Source of the DNA: a virus
Taxonomy: Duplodnaviria; Heunggongvirae; Uroviricota; Caudoviricetes
Strand: one strand, 5' to 3'
Length of the DNA: 36,248 bases
IMG/VR virus record: IMGVR_UViG_2778261316_000009
A program made the position numbers and the translations under genes. A model generated the notes under the pieces. It searched no databases, had not been told where the DNA came from, and worked only from the letters and a program-made list of their open reading frames with translations. Every line of letters starts with the position of its first letter. Position 1 is the first letter of the stretch. This document shows positions 2,106 through 16,956 of this stretch, piece after piece.

Positions 2106-2279
2106 ATGAAAGATCAAAAAGCAACCAAGCCACAGGTTAAGTTCGACACAATGAAAGCATTCGCAGGTATGGGTGCTGCTGTTGAAGTTCTGATGAAGGC
2201 TGCTCCTAATGCGTTCACTCACGCTACTGTCTCTGGTAAAGAGCAGCAGGGTAAGCTTCGTCGTCGCAAAGCAGCATGA
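2106..2279 (+). CDS. small basic hypothetical protein (57 aa), absent from the ORF track because it is under 60 aa
   Basis: ATG at 2106 preceded by GGGAG; translation MKDQKATKPQVKFDTMKAFAGMGAAVEVLMKAAPNAFTHATVSGKEQQGKLRRRKAA; followed directly by a terminator. Confidence 0.45.
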   Translation: MKDQKATKPQVKFDTMKAFAGMGAAVEVLMKAAPNAFTHATVSGKEQQGKLRRRKAA

Positions 2280-2297
2280 TCATAGCTGGTGCTTTTT

Positions 2298-2325
2298 GAA
2301 AACCCGCCTTTAGGCGGGTTTTTTC
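2298..2325. terminator. bidirectional rho-independent terminator between convergent genes
   Basis: CCCGCC-TTTA-GGCGGG hairpin flanked by an A-run upstream and a T-run downstream. Confidence 0.65.
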
Positions 2326-2347
2326 TTTAGTGATGTTCTTTGCCCTT

Positions 2348-2608
2348 CTATTTGCCTGTTCTGACCTGTTCCCACTCGATACGTCCTTCTTCTCGTCTTT
2401 TGTCTATGTATTCCGCAAGATCCTGAATATTGATGCAACGTTTTGCTTTTTGTGATGTGCCGATGCGATATGTTGGAACGGGCAACTTACAAGCGTTTGC
2501 TTTTGCTTCTGCCGTGGCTGGACTCATGCCAAAGTACTTTTGGCTAACTGCTGAGAGTTCAATGTTAGGGGTATTGAATTCAGCCATCAGTAAAAACAAG
2601 GTGTTCAT
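2348..2608 (-). CDS. PrtN-family DNA-binding protein (putative excisionase or transcriptional activator)
   Basis: N-terminus MNTLFLLMAEF ... DLAEYIDKRR resembles the pyocin activator PrtN family; the longest ORF extends to 2635, the third Met (2608) is chosen by family resemblance. Confidence 0.6.
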   Translation of the reverse strand: MNTLFLLMAEFNTPNIELSAVSQKYFGMSPATAEAKANACKLPVPTYRIGTSQKAKRCINIQDLAEYIDKRREEGRIEWEQVRTGK

Positions 2609-2644
2609 AATTTTCTCCATCAAAACCGGCTGCACCCGGGAAAA

Positions 2645-3217
2645 TCATAATTCTGTGCTGGTGGCAGGAATTAATTTCTGCCAGATAGCGGAAACATATT
2701 TTGCCTGATGACGAGCATCAGCCAGGGCGTTGTGCCGTTCGCCATCGAAAGGCATGTCCATTTTGGGGTCGAATCCGATGAAACGCCCAAGCGTAACGAT
2801 CGTGCGTACATCGTGGTCATTCCAGCACGCCCATGGGCAGATTTGTCCTGCTCGCTCATAAGCCCCACGTAAAATTACGTTGTCGAAGGTGGCTCCGTTA
2901 CCCCAGACTTTTAAATATTTCGTATTGTCTGCGTGCCGGTTAATGAAATGGTTCAGTTCAGAGAGTGCATCGCTGATCGACAAAGTATCATCAATACAGA
3001 TTGCAGCTCGTGCTTCAGGGCTTTGTTTCAACCACCACAGGATGGTATCGCCGCCAGGTGTGGCCCCTTGCTCCATAGCACTTTCCAGGCTGACAACCGT
3101 ATAGAATTCTTGTCCGATGTCTCCGGTTTCTGGGGTGAAGAACACCGCGCCAATGGAAACGATTGGTGCATCCTTATTTTTCCCCATCGTCTCAAGGTCG
3201 ATCATTAAGTTGTTCAT
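2645..3217 (-). CDS. DnaQ-like 3'-5' exonuclease
   Basis: MNNLMIDLETMGKN ... PIVSIGAV start and conserved acidic/His residues typical of phage DEDDh-type exonucleases; start ATG overlaps the upstream gene stop (TGATG). Confidence 0.65.
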   Translation of the reverse strand: MNNLMIDLETMGKNKDAPIVSIGAVFFTPETGDIGQEFYTVVSLESAMEQGATPGGDTILWWLKQSPEARAAICIDDTLSISDALSELNHFINRHADNTKYLKVWGNGATFDNVILRGAYERAGQICPWACWNDHDVRTIVTLGRFIGFDPKMDMPFDGERHNALADARHQAKYVSAIWQKLIPATSTEL

Positions 3218-3768
3218 CACTTCACCTCCTGCGGCGGTTCCGGTAGCGGCATCCAGTGAGTTGCTTGCTCAATACCATTACCCGGCTTAATCGTTGCATC
3301 TCCGCGCCGAAAGGTGCTTCCGGTATAGCGTGCGGAGCATATTAGCGGTTCAACCAGAGAGCTATCGAAATTCACCGAAATAAGCACGTTCTGGCCCTTT
3401 TCAGGCATTCGATCACTACAGCTTATCCAACCATCCGGAATCACCGGAGAGTTGCCAGCCTGAAGTATGGCGGCATCGTATGGCTCTTCATCGAGATCAA
3501 TTGGCGAGTCGCATTTCGGGCAATAACCATCACAGTCACCTACTGCGGAAACTTCAATAACCTCTCTGCATGACCAGCACTGAACGGTAGGAACATAAAG
3601 CTCCGCATTAAACGCAGCAATAGCCTTATCAATCACCTTGACAGCATCAGCCATTGCGTAGCCGAGATTACCGCCGTCGCTTTGTGCTGCTGCTTTGCTG
3701 AGTACTTCGCGTATCTGGTGCAGGCGATCTATTGATACAGGACCGTGCGCCGGGTGGTTAGTTGTCAT
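3217..3768 (-). CDS. DUF551 domain phage protein
   Basis: C-terminal DRMPEKGQNVL ... THWMPLPEPP pattern typical of DUF551; ATGA overlap with the upstream gene. Confidence 0.6.
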   Translation of the reverse strand: MTTNHPAHGPVSIDRLHQIREVLSKAAAQSDGGNLGYAMADAVKVIDKAIAAFNAELYVPTVQCWSCREVIEVSAVGDCDGYCPKCDSPIDLDEEPYDAAILQAGNSPVIPDGWISCSDRMPEKGQNVLISVNFDSSLVEPLICSARYTGSTFRRGDATIKPGNGIEQATHWMPLPEPPQEVK

Positions 3769-4037
3769 GGCCTAATCTCCGTTCTGCCGCCGAGAAGGCG
3801 AATAGCAATCCGTTCCCGGAAAGTTAACTGCCGATGCTTGCCGCGAGCATTTACGATTTCCGGTTTCCCATTTGGTGGGTAATTAACCCTGACTGATTGA
3901 CCATCCAGCGCATGAGACGCCTCAAGTAGCGCAGATTTTAAATGCGGAGGACACTCAGTTTGCACTCGTTCGCCGTCTGAAATTACACCTGCAATACCCT
4001 GCAACATGCTCGCTAAATTACTGAGGTATTTTTTCAT
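3765..4037 (-). CDS. hypothetical phage protein
   Basis: 90-aa ORF with a strong RBS (GGGGGAG) and translational coupling on both sides. Confidence 0.5.
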   Translation of the reverse strand: MKKYLSNLASMLQGIAGVISDGERVQTECPPHLKSALLEASHALDGQSVRVNYPPNGKPEIVNARGKHRQLTFRERIAIRLLGGRTEIRP

Positions 4038-4038
4038 C

Positions 4039-4596
4039 TCACTCCCCCTTCACGCCAATGCCAGCGTCGGCACGTTCGGCTTCACTTTGTTCCCAAAACC
4101 ACTTGTGAAGCGCCATAAGCTCTTCGTCAATCGGTGCATATTTGCGGTCAAAGTAGGCCTGAGCATCTTTCTCAGACTCGTCAGGCAATTCACCAGGCCC
4201 AAACAGCGTGTTATAAATCCATGACAGCCCGTTCTTAGCGTCACCAGTTGCCTGCCATTCGATAATCGCAGCTTGCATGACCAGAATGTTCTTCCCGATT
4301 AACAGGTCCAGTTCTTTGTGTCGGTTGCAGATATATGCATTCTCTCTCTGTAATTCAGCATTGCGCTTCTCTGCGGCTTCCAGCGCATTTACCAGATCAT
4401 CAACGATTCCAGCAGATTGGCGTGCGTAATCTGTAATTGCCAGCTCGCATTCAATTTCAGTTCCGTTTTCGTTTGTGTGGCAAATAGCAAAGTAATCGGA
4501 GTCGATTTCGTTATCAGCCAAACGCCTCAGCGTGTCGGCAACCAGCACTCCGTTTTCAATCAGTATCTCTGTTGCGCGTTTGTTGATGTTGCTCAT
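4039..4596 (-). CDS. hypothetical phage protein
   Basis: 185-aa ORF with AGGAGG RBS; stop overlaps the next start. Confidence 0.5.
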   Translation of the reverse strand: MSNINKRATEILIENGVLVADTLRRLADNEIDSDYFAICHTNENGTEIECELAITDYARQSAGIVDDLVNALEAAEKRNAELQRENAYICNRHKELDLLIGKNILVMQAAIIEWQATGDAKNGLSWIYNTLFGPGELPDESEKDAQAYFDRKYAPIDEELMALHKWFWEQSEAERADAGIGVKGE

Positions 4597-5249
4597 TGGG
4601 CGGCCTCCTGGCGGTCTATGCGTTCAATTTCGGCCAGAATAAGTGCGCCAGCTTTCACCATGTCACGGCGTGGATTTGTCGGCTTCCACCATTCTGGTGT
4701 CCACGGCCAGTCAAATGGAATGCGGTTAAATGGATGGATGGCATTCAGTACGTAGCATGAGGATGCCCACAGTAACTGCGATTTGCTGTACTGGTCATCA
4801 TGCTCAGGCGTCCATCCCTCAACTGATTGATGGCGTTGACGCTCTGCAATTACTGACTGAACGGCATTGGATAGCGATTTCACACCCTGCGCACGCACTT
4901 CAGCCAGGATTGCGTCGGTGGCTGGGGTTTCACAGTAAGCAACACGCAAATTAGGCATGCACTTATCCATCATCTGCTCCATTTCGCCAGGCTCAGCAGC
5001 AGCCCAATGAGCCAATGTTTCTTTCGCTGCCGCCTTCAGCCCCGCATTCTCCACAGCCAGCGCCGCGCACTTGGCCTCAAGGTTATCAATCGTGATTCCA
5101 GCAGAACGACACTCCCGCAACGCCGTTTCTAGTTTTGATTCAAGTTCACCGAACTTACGGACAAGATATTCAGCGTTTGTTTCATTCACTTTCAGATCTC
5201 GTGGTACACATTTCCCGCGAAGAAACCCTTCCATTTCGAAAACATTCAT
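4593..5249 (-). CDS. phage protein with a DUF550-like C-terminal domain (Ea22/ead-like)
   Basis: C-terminal GWTPEHDDQY ... WPWTPEWWKP ... VKAGALILAEIERIDR pattern; start placed at the third Met for ATGA coupling with the HD gene stop. Confidence 0.5.
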   Translation of the reverse strand: MNVFEMEGFLRGKCVPRDLKVNETNAEYLVRKFGELESKLETALRECRSAGITIDNLEAKCAALAVENAGLKAAAKETLAHWAAAEPGEMEQMMDKCMPNLRVAYCETPATDAILAEVRAQGVKSLSNAVQSVIAERQRHQSVEGWTPEHDDQYSKSQLLWASSCYVLNAIHPFNRIPFDWPWTPEWWKPTNPRRDMVKAGALILAEIERIDRQEAAQ

Positions 5250-5782
5250 GCGCATTTGCGTAACTCCGATAACTCGTTAAAACGTTCCATAAACATCCCG
5301 TAGGCATGGCCCGGTGCCAGTGGAATCACGTTGAACATCTCAGTTGCCGGGATACCTTCCAGTACAGGCCAGAAAGAGCCATCATCAAGCCCGAGATCGC
5401 GGCGTTCGGTTGCCAGCATAATGAGATCGGCATATTTCACTGGCGTGCTCATAACAGGAGGTAACCCGTATTTCTCACGTATTACGGCGTCTATTTTTTC
5501 TTCCATCCGTTTATAGTCAGGAAGAAGTCGTTTCAGTGGTGCGGGGATGTCCTGGCAATATGCTTCTGTTGCATCATGCATTAAAGCTTCAAAAGCAAAT
5601 TCCTGTGGCACCAGCTGGCTGCAAAGCACCGCATGTTGGGCGACACTGTAGAAGTGTGAAAGATGTCCTGCAAAGCGACAGATATTTGAAAGGGAAACCG
5701 CGATATCGTTAATAACGATGTCGTCTTTATTTATCCTGTCATAATAAAAATGCTTCCCGGAAAAAGTTTTAATAAATGACAT
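5246..5782 (-). CDS. HD-domain phosphohydrolase
   Basis: His/Asp motifs (HSVAQHA ... HDATEAY); start at MSFIKTF with GGAGAA RBS, the upstream Met at 5809 lacks an RBS. Confidence 0.65.
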   Translation of the reverse strand: MSFIKTFSGKHFYYDRINKDDIVINDIAVSLSNICRFAGHLSHFYSVAQHAVLCSQLVPQEFAFEALMHDATEAYCQDIPAPLKRLLPDYKRMEEKIDAVIREKYGLPPVMSTPVKYADLIMLATERRDLGLDDGSFWPVLEGIPATEMFNVIPLAPGHAYGMFMERFNELSELRKCA

Positions 5783-5825
5783 TTTGTTCTCCACGTATAT
5801 GCGCTGCACCGCGCTGAATTCGGGT

Positions 5826-6166
5826 AAAAGGAAGCCCTCACCGTCCGGCGATTATTGAGTCAATTACATTTCCATAAATGCCCCCGTAGGGGCGGTTAGT
5901 TTCTCCACAAAACAGAGAAGAACACCTGCGGTGGCAGCCGCCCGGATGGATTGGGTTATGAGCCCGTCGTCCGGTGATGCTCTTCTCTGTTTTGTAAAAA
6001 GGACGGTACCAGCCGGAAGCAAGGGTACAAGCTGGTACCGCCAAGACTACACACAGCATAAAGTTGTGGTGCCGGGTGCCTCCCGGTGCCTGGCGAAGGT
6101 TGCACACCAGGCGGGTGGGTATCCACAGAAGGTCGACTATCAGCCTCAACCTTAACCCGCGTGCGC
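5826..6166. other. GC-rich, highly structured non-coding element (candidate ncRNA or miniature palindromic insertion)
   Basis: no credible ORF (overlapping Arg/Pro/Gly-rich frames on both strands); 15-bp perfect inverted repeat 5907-5921 / 5981-5995 plus at least four further hairpins (5880-5893, 6005-6039, 6072-6086, 6088-6112). Confidence 0.35.
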
Positions 6167-6172
6167 TGAGCC

Positions 6173-6262
6173 GCATTCACCACAACGCTAAGGATTCTCT
6201 CTGGTTGAAAATACTTAGCTGTTATGTGCCTGTCTTTTCACCACTTCAGGCTCGGTGGTATC
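6173..6262. repeat. repeat B copy 1 (90 bp), identical to 6828-6917 as read
   Basis: direct comparison of the two stretches in the sequence. Confidence 0.8.
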
Positions 6263-6295
6263 CTTTTAAGCCCGTATACATAAAAGGAAAATCAA

Positions 6296-6541
6296 ATGAC
6301 TTTTGATGAAAAAGAACTTGATAATGCAATTAATAAAATCATCGTAACGTCGCTCTTTTCCTGTCTCAGCGACACTCAGCAGAAACAGTTCTACGAATCG
6401 GCTTTCAACATGATCGAGCGTTGTTGTTTCTGCGATGCCGACGAGTTACCTGAAAAAATCAGGAAACAGTTGGCTGATGCTCTTCGAGTGCGACTTTCTG
6501 ACCAATTTTCTGAAATGTACTCTCCGAATTTGGACAAATAG
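6296..6541 (+). CDS. small hypothetical protein (81 aa), cassette 1 plus-strand gene
   Basis: AAAAGGAAAA RBS 6 nt before the ATG; transcribed opposite to the pL operon. Confidence 0.45.
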   Translation: MTFDEKELDNAINKIIVTSLFSCLSDTQQKQFYESAFNMIERCCFCDADELPEKIRKQLADALRVRLSDQFSEMYSPNLDK

Positions 6542-7595: not shown

Positions 7596-8249
7596 TCAAA
7601 AATCCATTATTACTTGTTTGACAAGACCAACTATTCTGCAGTTCTCACCGCATTCAATAGTTTTATAGTTAGGATTTAGTGGGACGAGATACCTGTTCGG
7701 CCAGTCCTCAACAAATTTTTTGAGTGTCGCTTCTTGCCCACCATTGATATGGGCAACAACGATTTTTCCGTTAATACACTCTGTATCAATAATATCTGGC
7801 TCTACGATAACGATAGAACCTTCTGGTATCGATGGTGAGCCGAGGGGATTGGTCATTGAATCACCACGGACCCGTAGTGCAAATGCCATTTCTGATACAA
7901 GGGCGGTAGTATAAACCCACTCTTCAGCATCTTCTTTCCTGACACCAGGCTCCGTCATTGTCCATGAACCCGCCTGAACCCACGAGATGAGGGGGACTTT
8001 TTTAACTGCGAATATTTCAGGTTTTAGATTTATCTTTGGTTCAGGCGAGCCTTTTCCGCTAACAAGCCACAGAGGATCGCATTTAAGTGCGTTGGCTAGG
8101 GCTTGAAGGTTGGCTCCATTTGGTTGGTAGTCGTCCTTTTCCCATCCAGTAACCGTGACACGGTTCACACCAGTCAAATCAGCCAGTGCTTGTTGTGTCA
8201 GGTTCAGTTCTTTTCGCCTTTGGCGAATACGATCACTCATGTTCATCAT
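7596..8249 (-). CDS. cI-like prophage repressor (HTH plus S24 LexA-type peptidase domain)
   Basis: N-terminal HTH LTQQALADLTGVNRVTVTGWE; C-terminal VRGDSM autocleavage-domain motif; flanked by operator palindromes. Confidence 0.85.
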   Translation of the reverse strand: MMNMSDRIRQRRKELNLTQQALADLTGVNRVTVTGWEKDDYQPNGANLQALANALKCDPLWLVSGKGSPEPKINLKPEIFAVKKVPLISWVQAGSWTMTEPGVRKEDAEEWVYTTALVSEMAFALRVRGDSMTNPLGSPSIPEGSIVIVEPDIIDTECINGKIVVAHINGGQEATLKKFVEDWPNRYLVPLNPNYKTIECGENCRIVGLVKQVIMDF

Positions 8250-13123: not shown

Positions 13124-14119
13124 GTGACCGTGAGAGCACTACTGACCCCTGAAATAGCCCCGCGTATGGGGATTGTATTGTTCAGACCAGGTTCAGAGCT
13201 GATGCCCCTGTTTATGCAGGGGCGTGTCCTGCTGGAGCCTGAGCCGGAACGTTATTCATCTTTCGCCAGTGGTGCCGTTCCGGCGGCATCACAACCGCTG
13301 GCGGATGATCCTGCCGTTAGGGCCGTGTTCCGCAATGAGGCAGTGATCCGTCGTGCTGGTGGCGTGGAATGTCTTGAAAGCTGGTTACTTCGTGAAAAAG
13401 GCTGCCAGTGGCCTCATTCCGACTGGCACAGCGAGAACATGACCACAATGCGACACGCGCCGGGCGCGATCCGTCTGTGCTGGCACTGCGATAACCAGCT
13501 GCGCGATCAGTTCACGGAACGGCTGGAATCAATGGCAACGGATAACTGTGCCCGCTGGGTGTTGTCTGTAGTCCGTCTGGATCTCGGTTTTGATGATAAC
13601 CATGCCGTGACAATGCCGGAACTGTGCTGGTGGCTGATTCGTAATGACCTGGCGGATGCCTTACCGGAAAGTGCAGCCCGTAAGGCACTGAGATTACCGA
13701 AGCCTGTTGTGCCGTCTGTCACCCGGGAAAGTGACCTTGTGCCTTCGGTTCCTGCCACCAGCATCATCCAGGATAAGGCGAAAAAGGTGCTGGCGCTGAA
13801 AGTGGATCCGGAGTCGCCGGAGTCTTTTATGTTACGCCCAAAACGCCGCCGCTGGGTTAATGAAAAGTACACGCGCTGGGTTAAGACACAGCCGTGTGCA
13901 TGTTGTGGAAAGCCTGCTGATGATCCCCACCACCTGATAGGCCACGGTCAGGGTGGAATGGGTACAAAAGCGCATGACCTCTTTGTGTTGCCTTTGTGCA
14001 GAAAGCATCACGACGAGCTGCATGCGGATACCGTGGCATTTGAAGAGAAGTATGGCTCTCAGCTGGAGCTGATATTTCGTTTTATCGATCGTGCGCTGGC
14101 AATTGGCGTATTGGCGTAA
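13124..14119 (+). CDS. DUF968 domain protein
   Basis: C-terminal Cys/His cluster (CACCGKPADDPHH ... CRKHHDELH); GTG start. Confidence 0.55.
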   Translation: MTVRALLTPEIAPRMGIVLFRPGSELMPLFMQGRVLLEPEPERYSSFASGAVPAASQPLADDPAVRAVFRNEAVIRRAGGVECLESWLLREKGCQWPHSDWHSENMTTMRHAPGAIRLCWHCDNQLRDQFTERLESMATDNCARWVLSVVRLDLGFDDNHAVTMPELCWWLIRNDLADALPESAARKALRLPKPVVPSVTRESDLVPSVPATSIIQDKAKKVLALKVDPESPESFMLRPKRRRWVNEKYTRWVKTQPCACCGKPADDPHHLIGHGQGGMGTKAHDLFVLPLCRKHHDELHADTVAFEEKYGSQLELIFRFIDRALAIGVLA

Positions 14120-14132
14120 GTGGAGAACGAGC

Positions 14133-14885
14133 ATGAACCTTGAAGCCTTACCAAAATATTACTCCCCAAAATCTCCAAAATTGAGCGATGACGCACCGGC
14201 GACAGGCTCAGGTGGTTTAACGATTACGGATGTGATGGCTGCGCAGGGGATGGTGCAGTCGAAAGCACCGCTTGGGTTTGCCTTATTCCTGGCAAAAGTT
14301 GGTGTTCAGGATCCTCAATTTGCGATTGAAGGTCTGCTCAATTACGCGATGGCACTGGATAACCCGACATTGAACAAATTGAGTGAAGAAACCCGGTTAC
14401 AGATCATCCCTTACCTTGTGAATTTTGCCTTTGCTGATTATTCCAGGTCTGCGGCAAGTAAGGCTCGCTGTGAGCATTGTGCTGGTACTGGATTTCATAA
14501 TGTATTGCGCGAAGTGGTGAAACACTCCAGAAGCGGGGAATCTGTTATCAAGGAAGAGTGGGTGAAGGAACTATGTCAGCATTGTCATGGTAAGGGAGAA
14601 GTCAGCACAGCGTGCAGAGGGTGTAAGGGTAAAGGTATTGTCCTGGATGAAAAAAGGACCCGGCTTCATGGCACGCCTGTTTATAAGATTTGTGGGCGTT
14701 GCAATGGAAACCGGTTTAGCCGTTTACCAACCACGCTGGCACGACGTCATGTCCAGAAGCTGGTACCAGACCTGACCGATTATCAGTGGTATAAGGGGTA
14801 TGCGGACGTCATTGGTAAACTGGTAACAAAGTGCTGGCAGGAAGAAGCATACGCGGAAGCGCAATTGAGGAAGGTGACGAGATAA
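14133..14885 (+). CDS. late-gene antiterminator Q (QuuQ-like, with DnaJ-type zinc finger)
   Basis: CxxCxGxG repeats (CEHCAGTG, CQHCHGKG, CRGCKGKG); sits directly upstream of a promoter/terminator pair and the lysis genes; about 250 aa. Confidence 0.65.
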   Translation: MNLEALPKYYSPKSPKLSDDAPATGSGGLTITDVMAAQGMVQSKAPLGFALFLAKVGVQDPQFAIEGLLNYAMALDNPTLNKLSEETRLQIIPYLVNFAFADYSRSAASKARCEHCAGTGFHNVLREVVKHSRSGESVIKEEWVKELCQHCHGKGEVSTACRGCKGKGIVLDEKRTRLHGTPVYKICGRCNGNRFSRLPTTLARRHVQKLVPDLTDYQWYKGYADVIGKLVTKCWQEEAYAEAQLRKVTR

Positions 14886-14916
14886 ATGATTTTTGCTGAA
14901 GATGGCGACATGATGC

Positions 14917-14945
14917 TTGCATTTTTCAAAAAATATGGATAAGAT
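14917..14945 (+). promoter_or_regulatory. candidate late promoter pR'
   Basis: TTGCAT, 17-bp spacer, TAAGAT, immediately after Q. Confidence 0.5.
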
Positions 14946-14991
14946 TTTCCCAACGATGGGCTTTGTATGTCTACCGTTGATAAGATTTAGG

Positions 14992-15016
14992 AACCCGCCA
15001 CTGAGCGGGTTTTTTG
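14992..15016 (+). terminator. rho-independent terminator (tR'-like)
   Basis: ACCCGC-CACTGA-GCGGGT hairpin followed by a T-run. Confidence 0.7.
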
Positions 15017-15137
15017 TACCTGTAAACTTGGTGCAGTACAGTAAACACGCTGGTGGTCGTGAATACTGACTTTTTATCTTGCTGGATTTTTAGACAAGAG
15101 TTATTGGTATGTCATGTTAACCAGAAGGGAAAAAGAC

Positions 15138-15341
15138 ATGCTAAAACAGCAAGATATGACAGAAACCGCCGCCGCAGTCCTTCATTTCTTACCTGCTGAC
15201 AAGTGGGTAACGCCACGCATGATGACGAGAACTACCGGAGTAAGCGAAGCCCGGTGCCAGTTAATACTGACTCAGTTAGTTCTGGCGGGTCTGGCGAAGG
15301 ATAACGGCGGGTACGGGAATAAATTCAGACGCTGCCAGTAA
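15138..15341 (+). CDS. small winged-helix protein (PapI/FaeA-like?)
   Basis: AAGGGA RBS before the second ATG; pattern VSEARCQLILTQLVLAGLA is wHTH-like; weak call. Confidence 0.35.
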   Translation: MLKQQDMTETAAAVLHFLPADKWVTPRMMTRTTGVSEARCQLILTQLVLAGLAKDNGGYGNKFRRCQ

Positions 15342-15491
15342 TGGCGGTTTCCTGCTGTGAAAATGGGCGGCTGGTGGGTGTTGGTAGCACCTGCCAGCCA
15401 TTCGCTCATGCTTACTGGTCACAAGCGAACCACGGCCCACTGCTTTAGCGCAAAAGCAGAGTGAGCCTACCAGAGTTACGCTTACTGATCC

Positions 15492-16544
15492 ATGAAAAAT
15501 ACTGTAAAAATAAACAGTGTTGATTTAATCAACGCTGATTGCCTGCATTTTATTCAGTCCCTGCCTGATGATTCCATTGACCTGATTGTTACCGATCCGC
15601 CTTACTTCAAGGTGAAACCTAACGGTTGGGACAATCAGTGGAAAGGGGATGAAGATTACCTTAAGTGGCTGGACCACTGTCTGGCCCAGTTCTGGCGGGT
15701 GTTGAAACCTGCCGGAAGCCTTTACCTGTTCTGTGGGCATCGCCTAGCATCTGATATTGAGATCATGATGCGTGAACGTTTCAACGTGCTTAACCATATC
15801 ATCTGGGCGAAGCCGTCCGGACGTTGGAATGGGTGTAATAAAGAAAGTCTGCGCGCATATTTTCCTGCCACAGAGCGCGTTCTGTTTGCTGAACATTACC
15901 AGGGGCCATATCGCGGCAAAAGTGACGGCTATGCGGCAAAAGAAAGGGAACTCAAACAGCACATAATGGCACCGCTGATATCGTATTTCAGGGATGCTCG
16001 TGCCGAACTGGGTATAACGGCAAAACAAATTGCCGAAGCCACAGGTAAGAAAAATATGGTTTCCCACTGGTTTGGTGCCAGTCAGTGGCAGTTGCCGAAT
16101 GAGGCTGACTATCGGAAGTTACAGGCACTGTTTTCCCGTATAGCGGCAGAGAAGTTTCAGGAACAACAACTGGAACAACCACACCACCAGCTGGTGGCAT
16201 CTTATGATTCACTGAATCGCAAATATTCTGAATTGCTGGATGAGTTTAAATCTCTCCGGCGCTATTTCTCCGTATCAGTCTCCGTGCCTTATACCGATGT
16301 CTGGACGCATAAGCCCGTTCAGTTCTACCCGGGTAAACATCCGTGCGAGAAACCGACGGATATGCTCCGGCAAATAATCAATGCCAGTAGTCGACCTGGT
16401 GATCTGGTTGCTGATTTCTTTATGGGATCCGGTTCCACAATAAAAGCAGCAATGGCGCTGGGGCGTCGGGCGTTAGGTGTTGAACTTGAGTCAGAGCGGT
16501 TTAATCAGACGGTGAAAGAGGTAAGTGAACTGGTGGGGAAATAA
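15492..16544 (+). CDS. DNA methyltransferase (N6-adenine/N4-cytosine family) in the late-region moron position
   Basis: DPPY catalytic motif (DLIVTDPPYF) N-terminal and AdoMet-binding FxGxG (DFFMGSGST) C-terminal. Confidence 0.8.
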   Translation: MKNTVKINSVDLINADCLHFIQSLPDDSIDLIVTDPPYFKVKPNGWDNQWKGDEDYLKWLDHCLAQFWRVLKPAGSLYLFCGHRLASDIEIMMRERFNVLNHIIWAKPSGRWNGCNKESLRAYFPATERVLFAEHYQGPYRGKSDGYAAKERELKQHIMAPLISYFRDARAELGITAKQIAEATGKKNMVSHWFGASQWQLPNEADYRKLQALFSRIAAEKFQEQQLEQPHHQLVASYDSLNRKYSELLDEFKSLRRYFSVSVSVPYTDVWTHKPVQFYPGKHPCEKPTDMLRQIINASSRPGDLVADFFMGSGSTIKAAMALGRRALGVELESERFNQTVKEVSELVGK

Positions 16545-16549
16545 TTCTG

Positions 16550-16575
16550 GTGGCCACGTTGCGTGGCCTTTTTAT
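16550..16575 (+). terminator. rho-independent terminator after the methyltransferase
   Basis: GGCCACG-TTG-CGTGGCC followed by T5. Confidence 0.6.
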
Positions 16576-16620
16576 TTCCAACACAGCACCCGCAAATATC
16601 GCGAGGTGAGAGATGACGAA

Positions 16621-16956
16621 ATGCCTCATAACCCAAATACCTGGCCGGACTGGCTGGAGTTGTTTCAGAGCTGGTGGCGTGGAGACACACCGCTGGGTGC
16701 AGTGATTATGTCGATCGTTATGGCTGGTTTGCGCATCGCCTATTTTGGCGGTGGTGGTGGCTGGAAGCGAAAAACGCTCGAGATTTTGCTCTGTGGCGCT
16801 CTGACGCTGACCTTTGCATCCGCTCTTGAATATGTCGGATGGCCTAAATCGCTTTCTGTTGCCATTGGTGGTGGCGTGGGGCTGATCGGTGTCGATGCTA
16901 TTCGTGGGGCTGCAATGCGAGTAATCGGTAACAAATTTGGTAGCTCGAAGGAGTAA
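16621..16956 (+). CDS. holin (lambda S-like)
   Basis: hydrophobic helices and basic C-terminus; immediately upstream of the endolysin; start chosen downstream of the terminator. Confidence 0.6.
   Translation: MPHNPNTWPDWLELFQSWWRGDTPLGAVIMSIVMAGLRIAYFGGGGGWKRKTLEILLCGALTLTFASALEYVGWPKSLSVAIGGGVGLIGVDAIRGAAMRVIGNKFGSSKE

Follow-up and report, generated by a model that had tools for sequence, protein, structure and literature searches.

A conserved leader RNA precedes an M.EcoGII-family methyltransferase gene in the late region of an SfV-like prophage

A methyltransferase cassette between Q and the holin gene

The DNA studied here is a 36,248-nucleotide (nt) virus record (Caudoviricetes; IMG/VR record IMGVR_UViG_2778261316_000009), referred to at its full length as the window. 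It carries an SfV-like lambdoid prophage whose late region runs in the order Q, terminator, small open reading frame (ORF), spacer, DNA methyltransferase (MTase), terminator, and holin (Table 1). An initial annotation, made from the letters alone, had placed a DPPY-motif MTase and an upstream 67-amino-acid (aa) protein resembling a winged helix-turn-helix (wHTH) between a Q-controlled terminator and the lysis genes, with a dedicated terminator behind them and no restriction endonuclease beside them. This inventory held: Q, the upstream terminator, and the holin gene could all be identified, the larger protein matched an MTase family, the smaller one was modeled as a winged helix, the closing hairpin is followed by a T run, and no endonuclease-like ORFs were found between Q and the holin gene, leaving the MTase an orphan. 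What had been overlooked was the kinship of the enzyme with M.EcoGII and, within the 150-nt spacer, a conserved leader RNA, which is the main subject of this report.

Table 1. Window coordinates of the cassette, its flanking features, and the helices of the two leader folds
Feature	Position	Strand	Details and evidence
Late antiterminator Q (Q82/PF03589 type)	14091-14885	+	Pfam PF03589 E=1.9e-53; phrog_127 E=3.8e-108
tR'-like intrinsic terminator, 5' edge of inter-phage mosaic module	14989-15017	+	Fold; SfV/Ayreon annotation
Stand-alone winged-helix protein (SfV orf47, phrog_331)	15138-15341	+	67 aa; phrog_331 E=3e-26
Spacer between small ORF and MTase	15342-15491		150 nt
Conserved structured leader RNA of MTase mRNA	15358-15491	+	Alignments A2-A4, covariation, covariance model
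M.EcoGII-family beta-class N6-adenine MTase (SfV orf48), predicted sequence-non-specific	15492-16544	+	350 aa; PF01555
Intrinsic terminator closing the cassette, upstream of holin S	16552-16575	+	Terminator scan, fold, SfV/Ayreon annotation
Holin S, first lysis gene downstream	16621-16956	+	PF05106 E=5.9e-27; phrog_126
Fold A (three-way junction), P1	15364-15368 / 15435-15439		
Fold A, P2	15369-15380 / 15388-15399		
Fold A, P3	15401-15406 / 15424-15429		
Fold A, P4	15440-15445 / 15454-15459		
Fold A, P5 (3' hairpin)	15460-15466 / 15480-15486		
Fold B, P2 extension	15363-15368 / 15404-15409		
Fold B, sequestor helix	15417-15421 + 15423-15427 with 15479-15483 + 15486-15490		

The methyltransferase belongs to the M.EcoGII family

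The MTase matched the Pfam family PF01555 (N6_N4_Mtase) with an E value of 1.6e-42 and 146.4 bits (cut-off 26.7), and its residues 29 to 341 spanned profile positions 1 to 220 of 221, i.e., the whole catalytic core. The motifs TDPPYF (residues 34 to 39) and FMGSGS (residues 310 to 315) stand in the beta-class order, with DPPY first, the target recognition domain (TRD) in the center, and FxGxG at the C-terminal end. Compared with M.EcoGII, the protein was 81% identical across 349 aa, with two gaps and 67 substitutions, and within the TRD (residues 160 to 237) 60 of 78 positions were identical; Anc291, a reconstructed ancestor, shared about 89% identity with the protein, and SUPREM shared 70%. 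The M.EcoGII sequence was taken from machine-read text of Supplementary Table S1 of PMC11551740, and the identity figures are therefore approximate.

M.EcoGII and M.EcoGI of E. coli O104:H4 C227-11 (Murray et al. 2018, PMC5778455) share with the window enzyme a size of about 350 aa and the beta-class motif order; M.EcoGII, moreover, is likewise prophage-borne and lacks a partner endonuclease, and the same silence in the lysogen would be expected. M.EcoGII has been reported to methylate adenine in any context, with as much as 99% of dA modified in vitro; DNA treated with it resists many restriction enzymes (PMC5778455). In its native lysogen the enzyme is unexpressed, and when it is expressed it is deleterious and slows growth (PMC5778455). 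Its homologues give no methylated motif in lysogens of Shiga toxin-producing E. coli (bioRxiv 10.1101/173336), and a review places M.EcoGII alongside Mu Mom as silent in the lysogen and toxic (PMC12707154). All reconstructed ancestors retained methylation activity on both DNA and RNA, with Anc291 and SUPREM acting largely without site specificity on RNA, as determined by nanopore sequencing (PMC11551740). Judged by its sequence, the window MTase is an M.EcoGII-family enzyme and an orphan without a cognate endonuclease. Given the 81% identity to M.EcoGII, we strongly infer, rather than demonstrate, that the window allele methylates adenine non-specifically. The M.EcoGII literature covers the enzyme and not its genomic regulatory context, that is, the small ORF, the leader, and the terminators.

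The spacer upstream of the methyltransferase is a conserved and covarying leader

The spacer is 149 to 150 nt long in E. coli, Salmonella, Kosakonia, and one metagenome contig, and it is the most conserved stretch of the module, exceeding the small ORF, for whose product this comparison gave an identity of only about 51%. From an alignment of 48 Enterobacterales leader sequences (A3), helices P1 to P4 were drawn from visible compensatory changes and tested by pair counts; RNAalifold alone returned only a partial structure. After realignment of 56 sequences with a covariance model, 84.8% of the cells were paired, and double changes occurred in 15 of the 29 pairs. None of 500 column shuffles reached any of the five measures, and controls in which the 3' partners were slid by 1 to 3 columns were 25 to 52% paired, a contrast that is inflated, given that part of the structure was drawn from the window sequence itself. 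The clearest covarying pair, located in P3, was CG in 26 sequences, AU in 11, UA in 7, and UG in 4, while in Proteus the entire P2 stem has been rewritten and is still complementary. Many G-U pairs are conserved, which would become A-C mismatches if the element were read on the other strand, showing that the folded strand is the mRNA strand.

The covariance model of the leader gave one match per locus, always abutting the ATG of the MTase, and matched nowhere else in the window. In 14 loci the leader was present and the small ORF absent, which indicates that leader and MTase form the tighter unit. A search of positions 14850 to 15600 against Rfam 15 (cmscan, E<=10) gave no match within 15342 to 15491, there was no match at the Rfam gathering score anywhere in the window, and ARAGORN predicted no tRNA or tmRNA. 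We also considered a hidden peptide in the spacer and rejected it: upstream ORFs (uORFs) ranged from 2 to 60 codons, lay in differing frames, and were broken by 1-nt indels in loops. A scan of viral contigs returned only leader copies that were 98 to 100% identical, adding nothing to the covariation analysis. In the literature, we found no paper that contains the leader sequence or links EcoGII to a leader or riboswitch. Together, the 150-nt leader is conserved and covarying, and it appears to be two-state and, like its obligate link to this enzyme, previously undescribed.

A GATC sequence (Dam site; window 15486 to 15489, columns 150 to 153 of A3) just 5' of the MTase ATG was essentially invariant in all long-form leaders. 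In the Morganellaceae its pairing partner is also GATC, and RNA pairing may explain its conservation; another candidate would be a link to Dam at the level of DNA, of the kind found at Mu mom.

Two alternative folds predicted to use the same leader segment

The leader can be drawn in two folds (Table 1). Fold A is a three-way junction, and fold B extends P2 and replaces P3 with a sequestor helix. The segment common to both is AAGCG (15423 to 15427), which can pair upstream with UUCGCU in P3 of fold A or downstream with CGCUU in fold B, where UGAUC, at -6 to -2 relative to the MTase AUG, is also paired with GGUCA, so that the sequestor helix covers -13 to -2. In the alignment, the sequestor helix was 91.7% paired, with double changes at four pairs, the P2 extension 98.2%, and P5 89.1%; the P2 hairpin itself is very stable.

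The two folds were nearly equal in nearest-neighbour energies, which are approximate: -61.7 and -62.2 kcal/mol in the window sequence, against a minimum free energy (MFE) structure of -62.7 kcal/mol. Across 47 distinct sequences, the mean difference between the folds was 1.5 +/- 3.9 kcal/mol. For a nascent transcript reaching 15460, the MFE structure was fold A, and fold B won once the 3' strand had been made. The diverged leaders of Proteus and Morganella adopted the fold-B architecture as their own MFE structure.

At 15339 to 15343, and often at the corresponding place in other loci, the small ORF ends in TAATG or TGATG, its stop codon overlapping an ATG from which a short, non-conserved uORF extends into the leader. 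Reinitiation by ribosomes at this ATG could open up P1 and P2, which could matter for a switch, although conservation of the overlap is too low to call.

The small upstream protein is a generic winged helix

For the small ORF, the start at 15138 was favored, as it has an AAGGG Shine-Dalgarno sequence about 8 nt upstream; the resulting N terminus, MLKQQDMT, is kept in homologues down to about 50% identity, and an alternative 75-aa reading from 15114 exists. The product belongs to phrog_331, a family of unknown function, and had no Pfam family at threshold and no NCBIfam or PADLOC model, and a sequence search of the PDB yielded chance matches only (E ~1). We collected 150 homologues, some of them named 'TrmB family' transcriptional regulator by NCBI, which reach down to about 50% identity and come from Escherichia, Salmonella, Klebsiella, Kosakonia, Pantoea, Proteus, Morganella, Xenorhabdus, and Photorhabdus. 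In alignment A1, the motif (P/E)RCQL(I/L)LTQ in helix 3, the recognition helix, was invariant, and the aromatic-basic wing at the C-terminal end was conserved.

AlphaFold2 (AF2), run on a 22-sequence alignment, gave a model with a pLDDT of 86.9 and a pTM of 0.75 in the canonical winged-helix topology H1-H2-H3-hairpin (helices 4 to 17, 26 to 33, and 37 to 49; strands 53 to 55 and 63 to 65). Foldseek searches with this model recovered generic winged helices only, among them Zalpha (TM 0.80), TrmBL2, and IclR N-terminal domains, and the viral library added nothing specific; PefI (2jt1), a PapI-family structure, came at rank 35 with a TM of 0.60 among the generic matches. When 22 family members were compared with Pfam at E<=10, sub-threshold matches were obtained to TrmB (18 of 22) and DprA_WH (15 of 22), as well as to MarR_2 and, weakly, to Rrf2-type wHTH proteins, while FaeA was matched by none of them even at this threshold.

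With the Zalpha domains of ADAR1 and E3L, and with TrmB and the IclR N-terminal domains, the small protein shares topology and size, and membership in the Zalpha family was considered and rejected. The fold superimposes at a root mean square deviation of 1.5 A with 16% identity, but the Z-DNA-contacting residues do not match: by inspection, the Asn/Tyr/Trp triad of Zalpha is replaced by Gln/Thr/Phe-Tyr, and the residues conserved in the small protein lie on helix 3 and the wing. Of 80 genome loci retrieved with the MTase, 59 had the small gene directly 5' of the MTase gene, and among the loci retrieved with four divergent small proteins, the small gene lay directly 5' of the MTase gene without exception. 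On the strength of the structural model and this linkage, the small protein is a stand-alone winged helix of a generic kind, tightly linked to this MTase.

The cassette is bounded by terminators

Upstream of the cassette, a 10-bp hairpin (14989 to 15014) is followed by a U6 run, and the 78-nt segment that contains it folds at -24.6 kcal/mol. Downstream, a 7-bp GC-rich hairpin (16552 to 16568) is followed by TTTTTATTT and folds at -12.5 kcal/mol. Terminators are annotated at the homologous places, upstream as well as downstream, in SfV and Ayreon. Many phage matches to a query spanning 14886 to 16620 begin at base 107, i.e., window position 14992 in the tR' hairpin, indicating that the mosaic unit extends from terminator to terminator.

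A consensus scan for sigma-70 promoters, the only promoter search made, found no such site 5' of 15138 or of 15492; the sole plus-strand match was a weak 9/12 site within the small ORF. Inside the long-form spacer there was neither a sigma-70-like site nor a hairpin followed by a U run.

Downstream of Q, at 14917 to 15017, we noted a weak promoter-like pair consisting of TTGCAT (14917 to 14922) and TAAGAT (14940 to 14945) separated by 17 nt, and the motif GATAAGATTT is repeated at 14938 to 14947 and 14979 to 14988, ahead of the tR' hairpin. By analogy with lambda 6S RNA or StxS, this unit would yield a terminated RNA of about 60 nt. On the opposite strand, 14983 to 15119 resembled Rfam STnc130 below threshold (27.7 bits; gathering score, 55).

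Cassette and leader are widespread in phages and E. coli genomes

The best phage match to 14886 to 16620 was vB_EcoM-720R4 (99.5%), followed by SfV, mEp460, Ayreon, cdtI, and Stx2c phages at 90 to 98%, and the 1.7-kb query matched 2,994 of 5,426 complete E. coli genomes. The leader element was detected in 60 phage records and in 2,690 of the 5,426 complete E. coli genomes, with up to eight copies per genome, and almost every leader among the matches listed had no annotated feature beneath it. SfV (U82619) is annotated in the order Q, terminator, orf47, orf48, terminator, S, with an S of 336 nt, and the order in Ayreon is identical. More broadly, the cassettes of SfV (orf47-orf48), phiP27, Stx2a and Stx2c phages, cdtI, mEp460, and Ayreon share gene order and flanking terminators with the window at 90 to 99% nucleotide identity. 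These records annotate the two ORFs, as 'unknown' in SfV and as 'DNA methylase' for the larger one in the others, and leave the spacer unannotated. Because the MTase is of the M.EcoGII type and the cassette is annotated in SfV and other phages, the core of the finding was already known; the leader in the spacer is the new part.

The cassette keeps its position beside several types of holin and four Q families (PF03589, PF06530, DUF1133/PF06576, and PF06323). In phiP27 and Stx2a_1447, tRNA genes and stx2AB follow directly on the small ORF and the 'DNA methylase' gene, which places the cassette on the same Q-dependent transcript as the toxin. In the retrieved loci of these Stx phages (L094, Stx2a_1447, 3284 to 6314; L095, phiP27, 2790 to 5816), the tRNA genes are ileZ, argN, and argO. 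Some other loci carry unrelated cargo between Q and the small ORF. In some E. coli prophages, it lies on the reverse strand (2136 to 3588 in loci L003, L004, L006, and L007; 2274 to 3735 in L005) and is exemplified by a defence-like moron, an AAA_15/AAA_21/AAA_23 ATPase of 483 aa; other inserts, with an extra terminator, occupy this place in mEp460 and Ayreon.

In Xenorhabdus and Photorhabdus (loci L059 to L091), the spacer is of a short form of about 85 to 100 nt, which the covariance model misses. It consists of a strong, terminator-like hairpin with a U run before the MTase (start at 2501 in these loci), and this fits the idea that the region ahead of the MTase is used for extra silencing.

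Other features of the window

Downstream of the holin gene lie the endolysin and Rz genes of the lysis cassette, and the window further encodes a CI-type repressor (7596 to 8249, minus strand), KilA-N and DUF968 proteins, an HNH endonuclease with terminase, and Mu-like tail and baseplate proteins. The HNH endonuclease gene (PF01844; 17996 to 18966) is directly 5' of that for the small terminase subunit, which is the usual HK97/P27-type packaging arrangement, and the protein is no restriction partner of the MTase. Positions 1 to 2500 are low in GC (34 to 45%, against about 55% for the phage) and encode a DUF2713 protein (1 to 762) and an ORF without a family (1373 to 1909); this stretch is probably foreign cargo or host flank at the prophage edge.

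A model for late expression of the cassette

We consider it likely that the locus is a late-expressed anti-restriction cassette of an SfV-like lambdoid prophage, to which the leader adds a layer of control. Following the lambda and M.EcoGII paradigms and the homology of the parts, late-promoter transcripts in the lysogen would halt at the tR' hairpin, and the cassette would therefore be silent. Upon induction, Q would render RNA polymerase terminator-resistant, allowing it to read through tR', the cassette, and the second terminator into the lysis and structural genes. The MTase would then make N6-methyladenine (m6A) in essentially any context on replicating phage DNA prior to packaging, and the progeny DNA would thus be pre-protected against Type I, II, and III enzymes that need unmethylated adenine. 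Since indiscriminate adenine methylation would be toxic, extra safeguards on expression would be called for, and these may be provided by the terminators on both sides and by the leader with its two folds, in one of which the bases just ahead of the AUG are paired. Most likely, the leader would tune or gate translation of the MTase; it would act in cis and probably helps to restrain a toxic enzyme. The winged-helix protein may be a nucleic-acid-binding accessory that acts on the leader, like Mu Com, or on DNA.

Several findings weigh against this model or parts of it. The non-specific activity predicted for the window protein draws on the 81% identity, and the TRD departs from M.EcoGII at 18 of its 78 positions. 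The double changes in the sequestor helix come largely from one clade, the Morganellaceae, and thus represent few independent events, and, as mentioned, the window sequence itself contributed to the structure. Furthermore, the MTase AUG has no recognizable Shine-Dalgarno sequence and is unpaired in both folds, the effect on translation being a prediction. The leader is not universal, as its second domain is missing from the Xenorhabdus and Photorhabdus relatives; about 14 loci do without the winged-helix gene; and the putative late promoter is a weak consensus match.

Alternative explanations

The initial annotation had called the cassette a late-region moron, 'possibly anti-restriction or epigenetic' in function, and had taken a PapI/FaeA-like resemblance of the small protein as a hint of methylation-linked regulation. 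A sequence-specific MTase expressed from the prophage and working with a PapI-like partner to set heritable regulatory methylation would suit a site where lambdoid phages carry conversion genes, the terminator of its own, the co-encoded protein of DNA-binding type, and the invariant GATC just before the MTase ATG, but we give this explanation very little credence, as the MTase is 81% identical to a demonstrably non-specific enzyme, homologues yield no motif in lysogens, and no promoter-like site was found upstream. The terminator is present, but a sigma-70-like promoter before the cassette was not found, and the term moron is not supported in its strict sense. Nor is the resemblance to PapI/FaeA supported, with FaeA matched by 0 of 22 family members, PefI recovered only as a generic fold match, and the gene set in a phage late operon. 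Of the two functions proposed, anti-restriction is the best reading, and the epigenetic role in the lysogen is not supported; a late anti-restriction gene under Q describes the cassette better than a moron expressed in the lysogen or an epigenetic regulator would. The absence of a new methylation motif in lysogens, which had been put forward, together with an untranslated small ORF, as refuting the initial reading, is what would be expected of the M.EcoGII family and cannot refute it, because the family has neither a motif nor expression in the lysogen.

Other explanations concern the spacer. If the winged-helix protein were a DNA-binding controller that represses or times the MTase, comparable to the C proteins of restriction-modification systems, the 'leader' would be its DNA operator. 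The weak TrmB, MarR, and Rrf2 wHTH matches, the NCBI name 'TrmB family transcriptional regulator' for relatives, and a recognition helix that is invariant across genera, implying a conserved nucleic-acid target nearby, speak for such a controller. The compensatory changes and conserved G-U pairs, however, fit RNA and not a duplex operator, the element is unchanged in 14 loci without the protein, and no promoter to be controlled was found; we regard this explanation as unlikely. The spacer might also be a stable RNA that protects or processes the late transcript (a nuclease barrier, an RNase III or RNase E site, or a folding insulator) with no switch involved. Against this stand the fixed distance to the AUG and the complementarity kept for two mutually exclusive pairings of the AGCG segment, including in the diverged Morganellaceae, and although the great stability of the P2 hairpin and the place of the Stx-phage cassettes ahead of tRNA genes and stx, a region of transcript processing, would agree with it, we think it improbable. 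Highly improbable, in our opinion, is a metabolite riboswitch tying MTase synthesis to methyl-donor supply, e.g., by sensing S-adenosylmethionine (SAM) or S-adenosylhomocysteine (SAH). Such a role would account for the aptamer-like three-way junction, the highly conserved unpaired nucleotides, the mutually exclusive expression-platform helix, and the sole association of the leader with a SAM-dependent enzyme. Yet even at E<=10 there was no match to an Rfam riboswitch class, the junction is absent from the short-form relatives, metabolite sensing is of little obvious use to a phage late gene, and SAM riboswitches are not known from enterobacteria.

Within the model of a late anti-restriction cassette with a regulatory leader, a bolder version would make the 150-nt leader a bistable riboregulator of a class not yet described, gating the translation of a toxic and promiscuous writer of m6A and flipped by a factor acting in trans. 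We entertain this version tentatively, as a possibility that is more doubtful than not; the most attractive factor would be the winged-helix protein, activating the RNA in the manner of Com, and a metabolite would be the alternative.

Comparison with Mu com-mom

In phage Mu, the mom gene is preceded by a small ORF and by mRNA structure that occludes its start region. The window cassette shares with com-mom the function of a toxic, late-expressed adenine-modifying enzyme directed against restriction, along with the small upstream ORF, and its predicted sequestor helix may likewise occlude the start region; the parallel between Mom and M.EcoGII has been drawn before (PMC12707154). There is no sequence or fold relationship between the two systems, and none of their parts are homologous. 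Com is a zinc finger whose gene overlaps mom, whereas the small protein here is a winged helix without a Cys4 motif, encoded 150 nt upstream; Mom, unlike the window enzyme, is not a methyltransferase; and Mu relies on Dam/OxyR and the C activator, where the window cassette would depend on antitermination by Q. A Com-like activator role for the winged-helix protein is putative.

Implications

EcoGII is a commercial tool and a textbook example of phage 'Trojan horse' defence, and one more prophage copy of it would be routine. There has been no description of how phages keep so dangerous an enzyme inactive until an infection is in its final minutes. Three candidate parts emerge here: the bracketing terminators, the covarying leader, and the tiny winged-helix protein that usually accompanies them. 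In several Stx2 phages, the leader shares its late transcript with the toxin genes, which follow shortly after it. A leader that is a switch would provide a natural off-switch that could ease the cloning of EcoGII-type enzymes, and would offer a compact and testable model for the post-transcriptional control of toxic phage genes.

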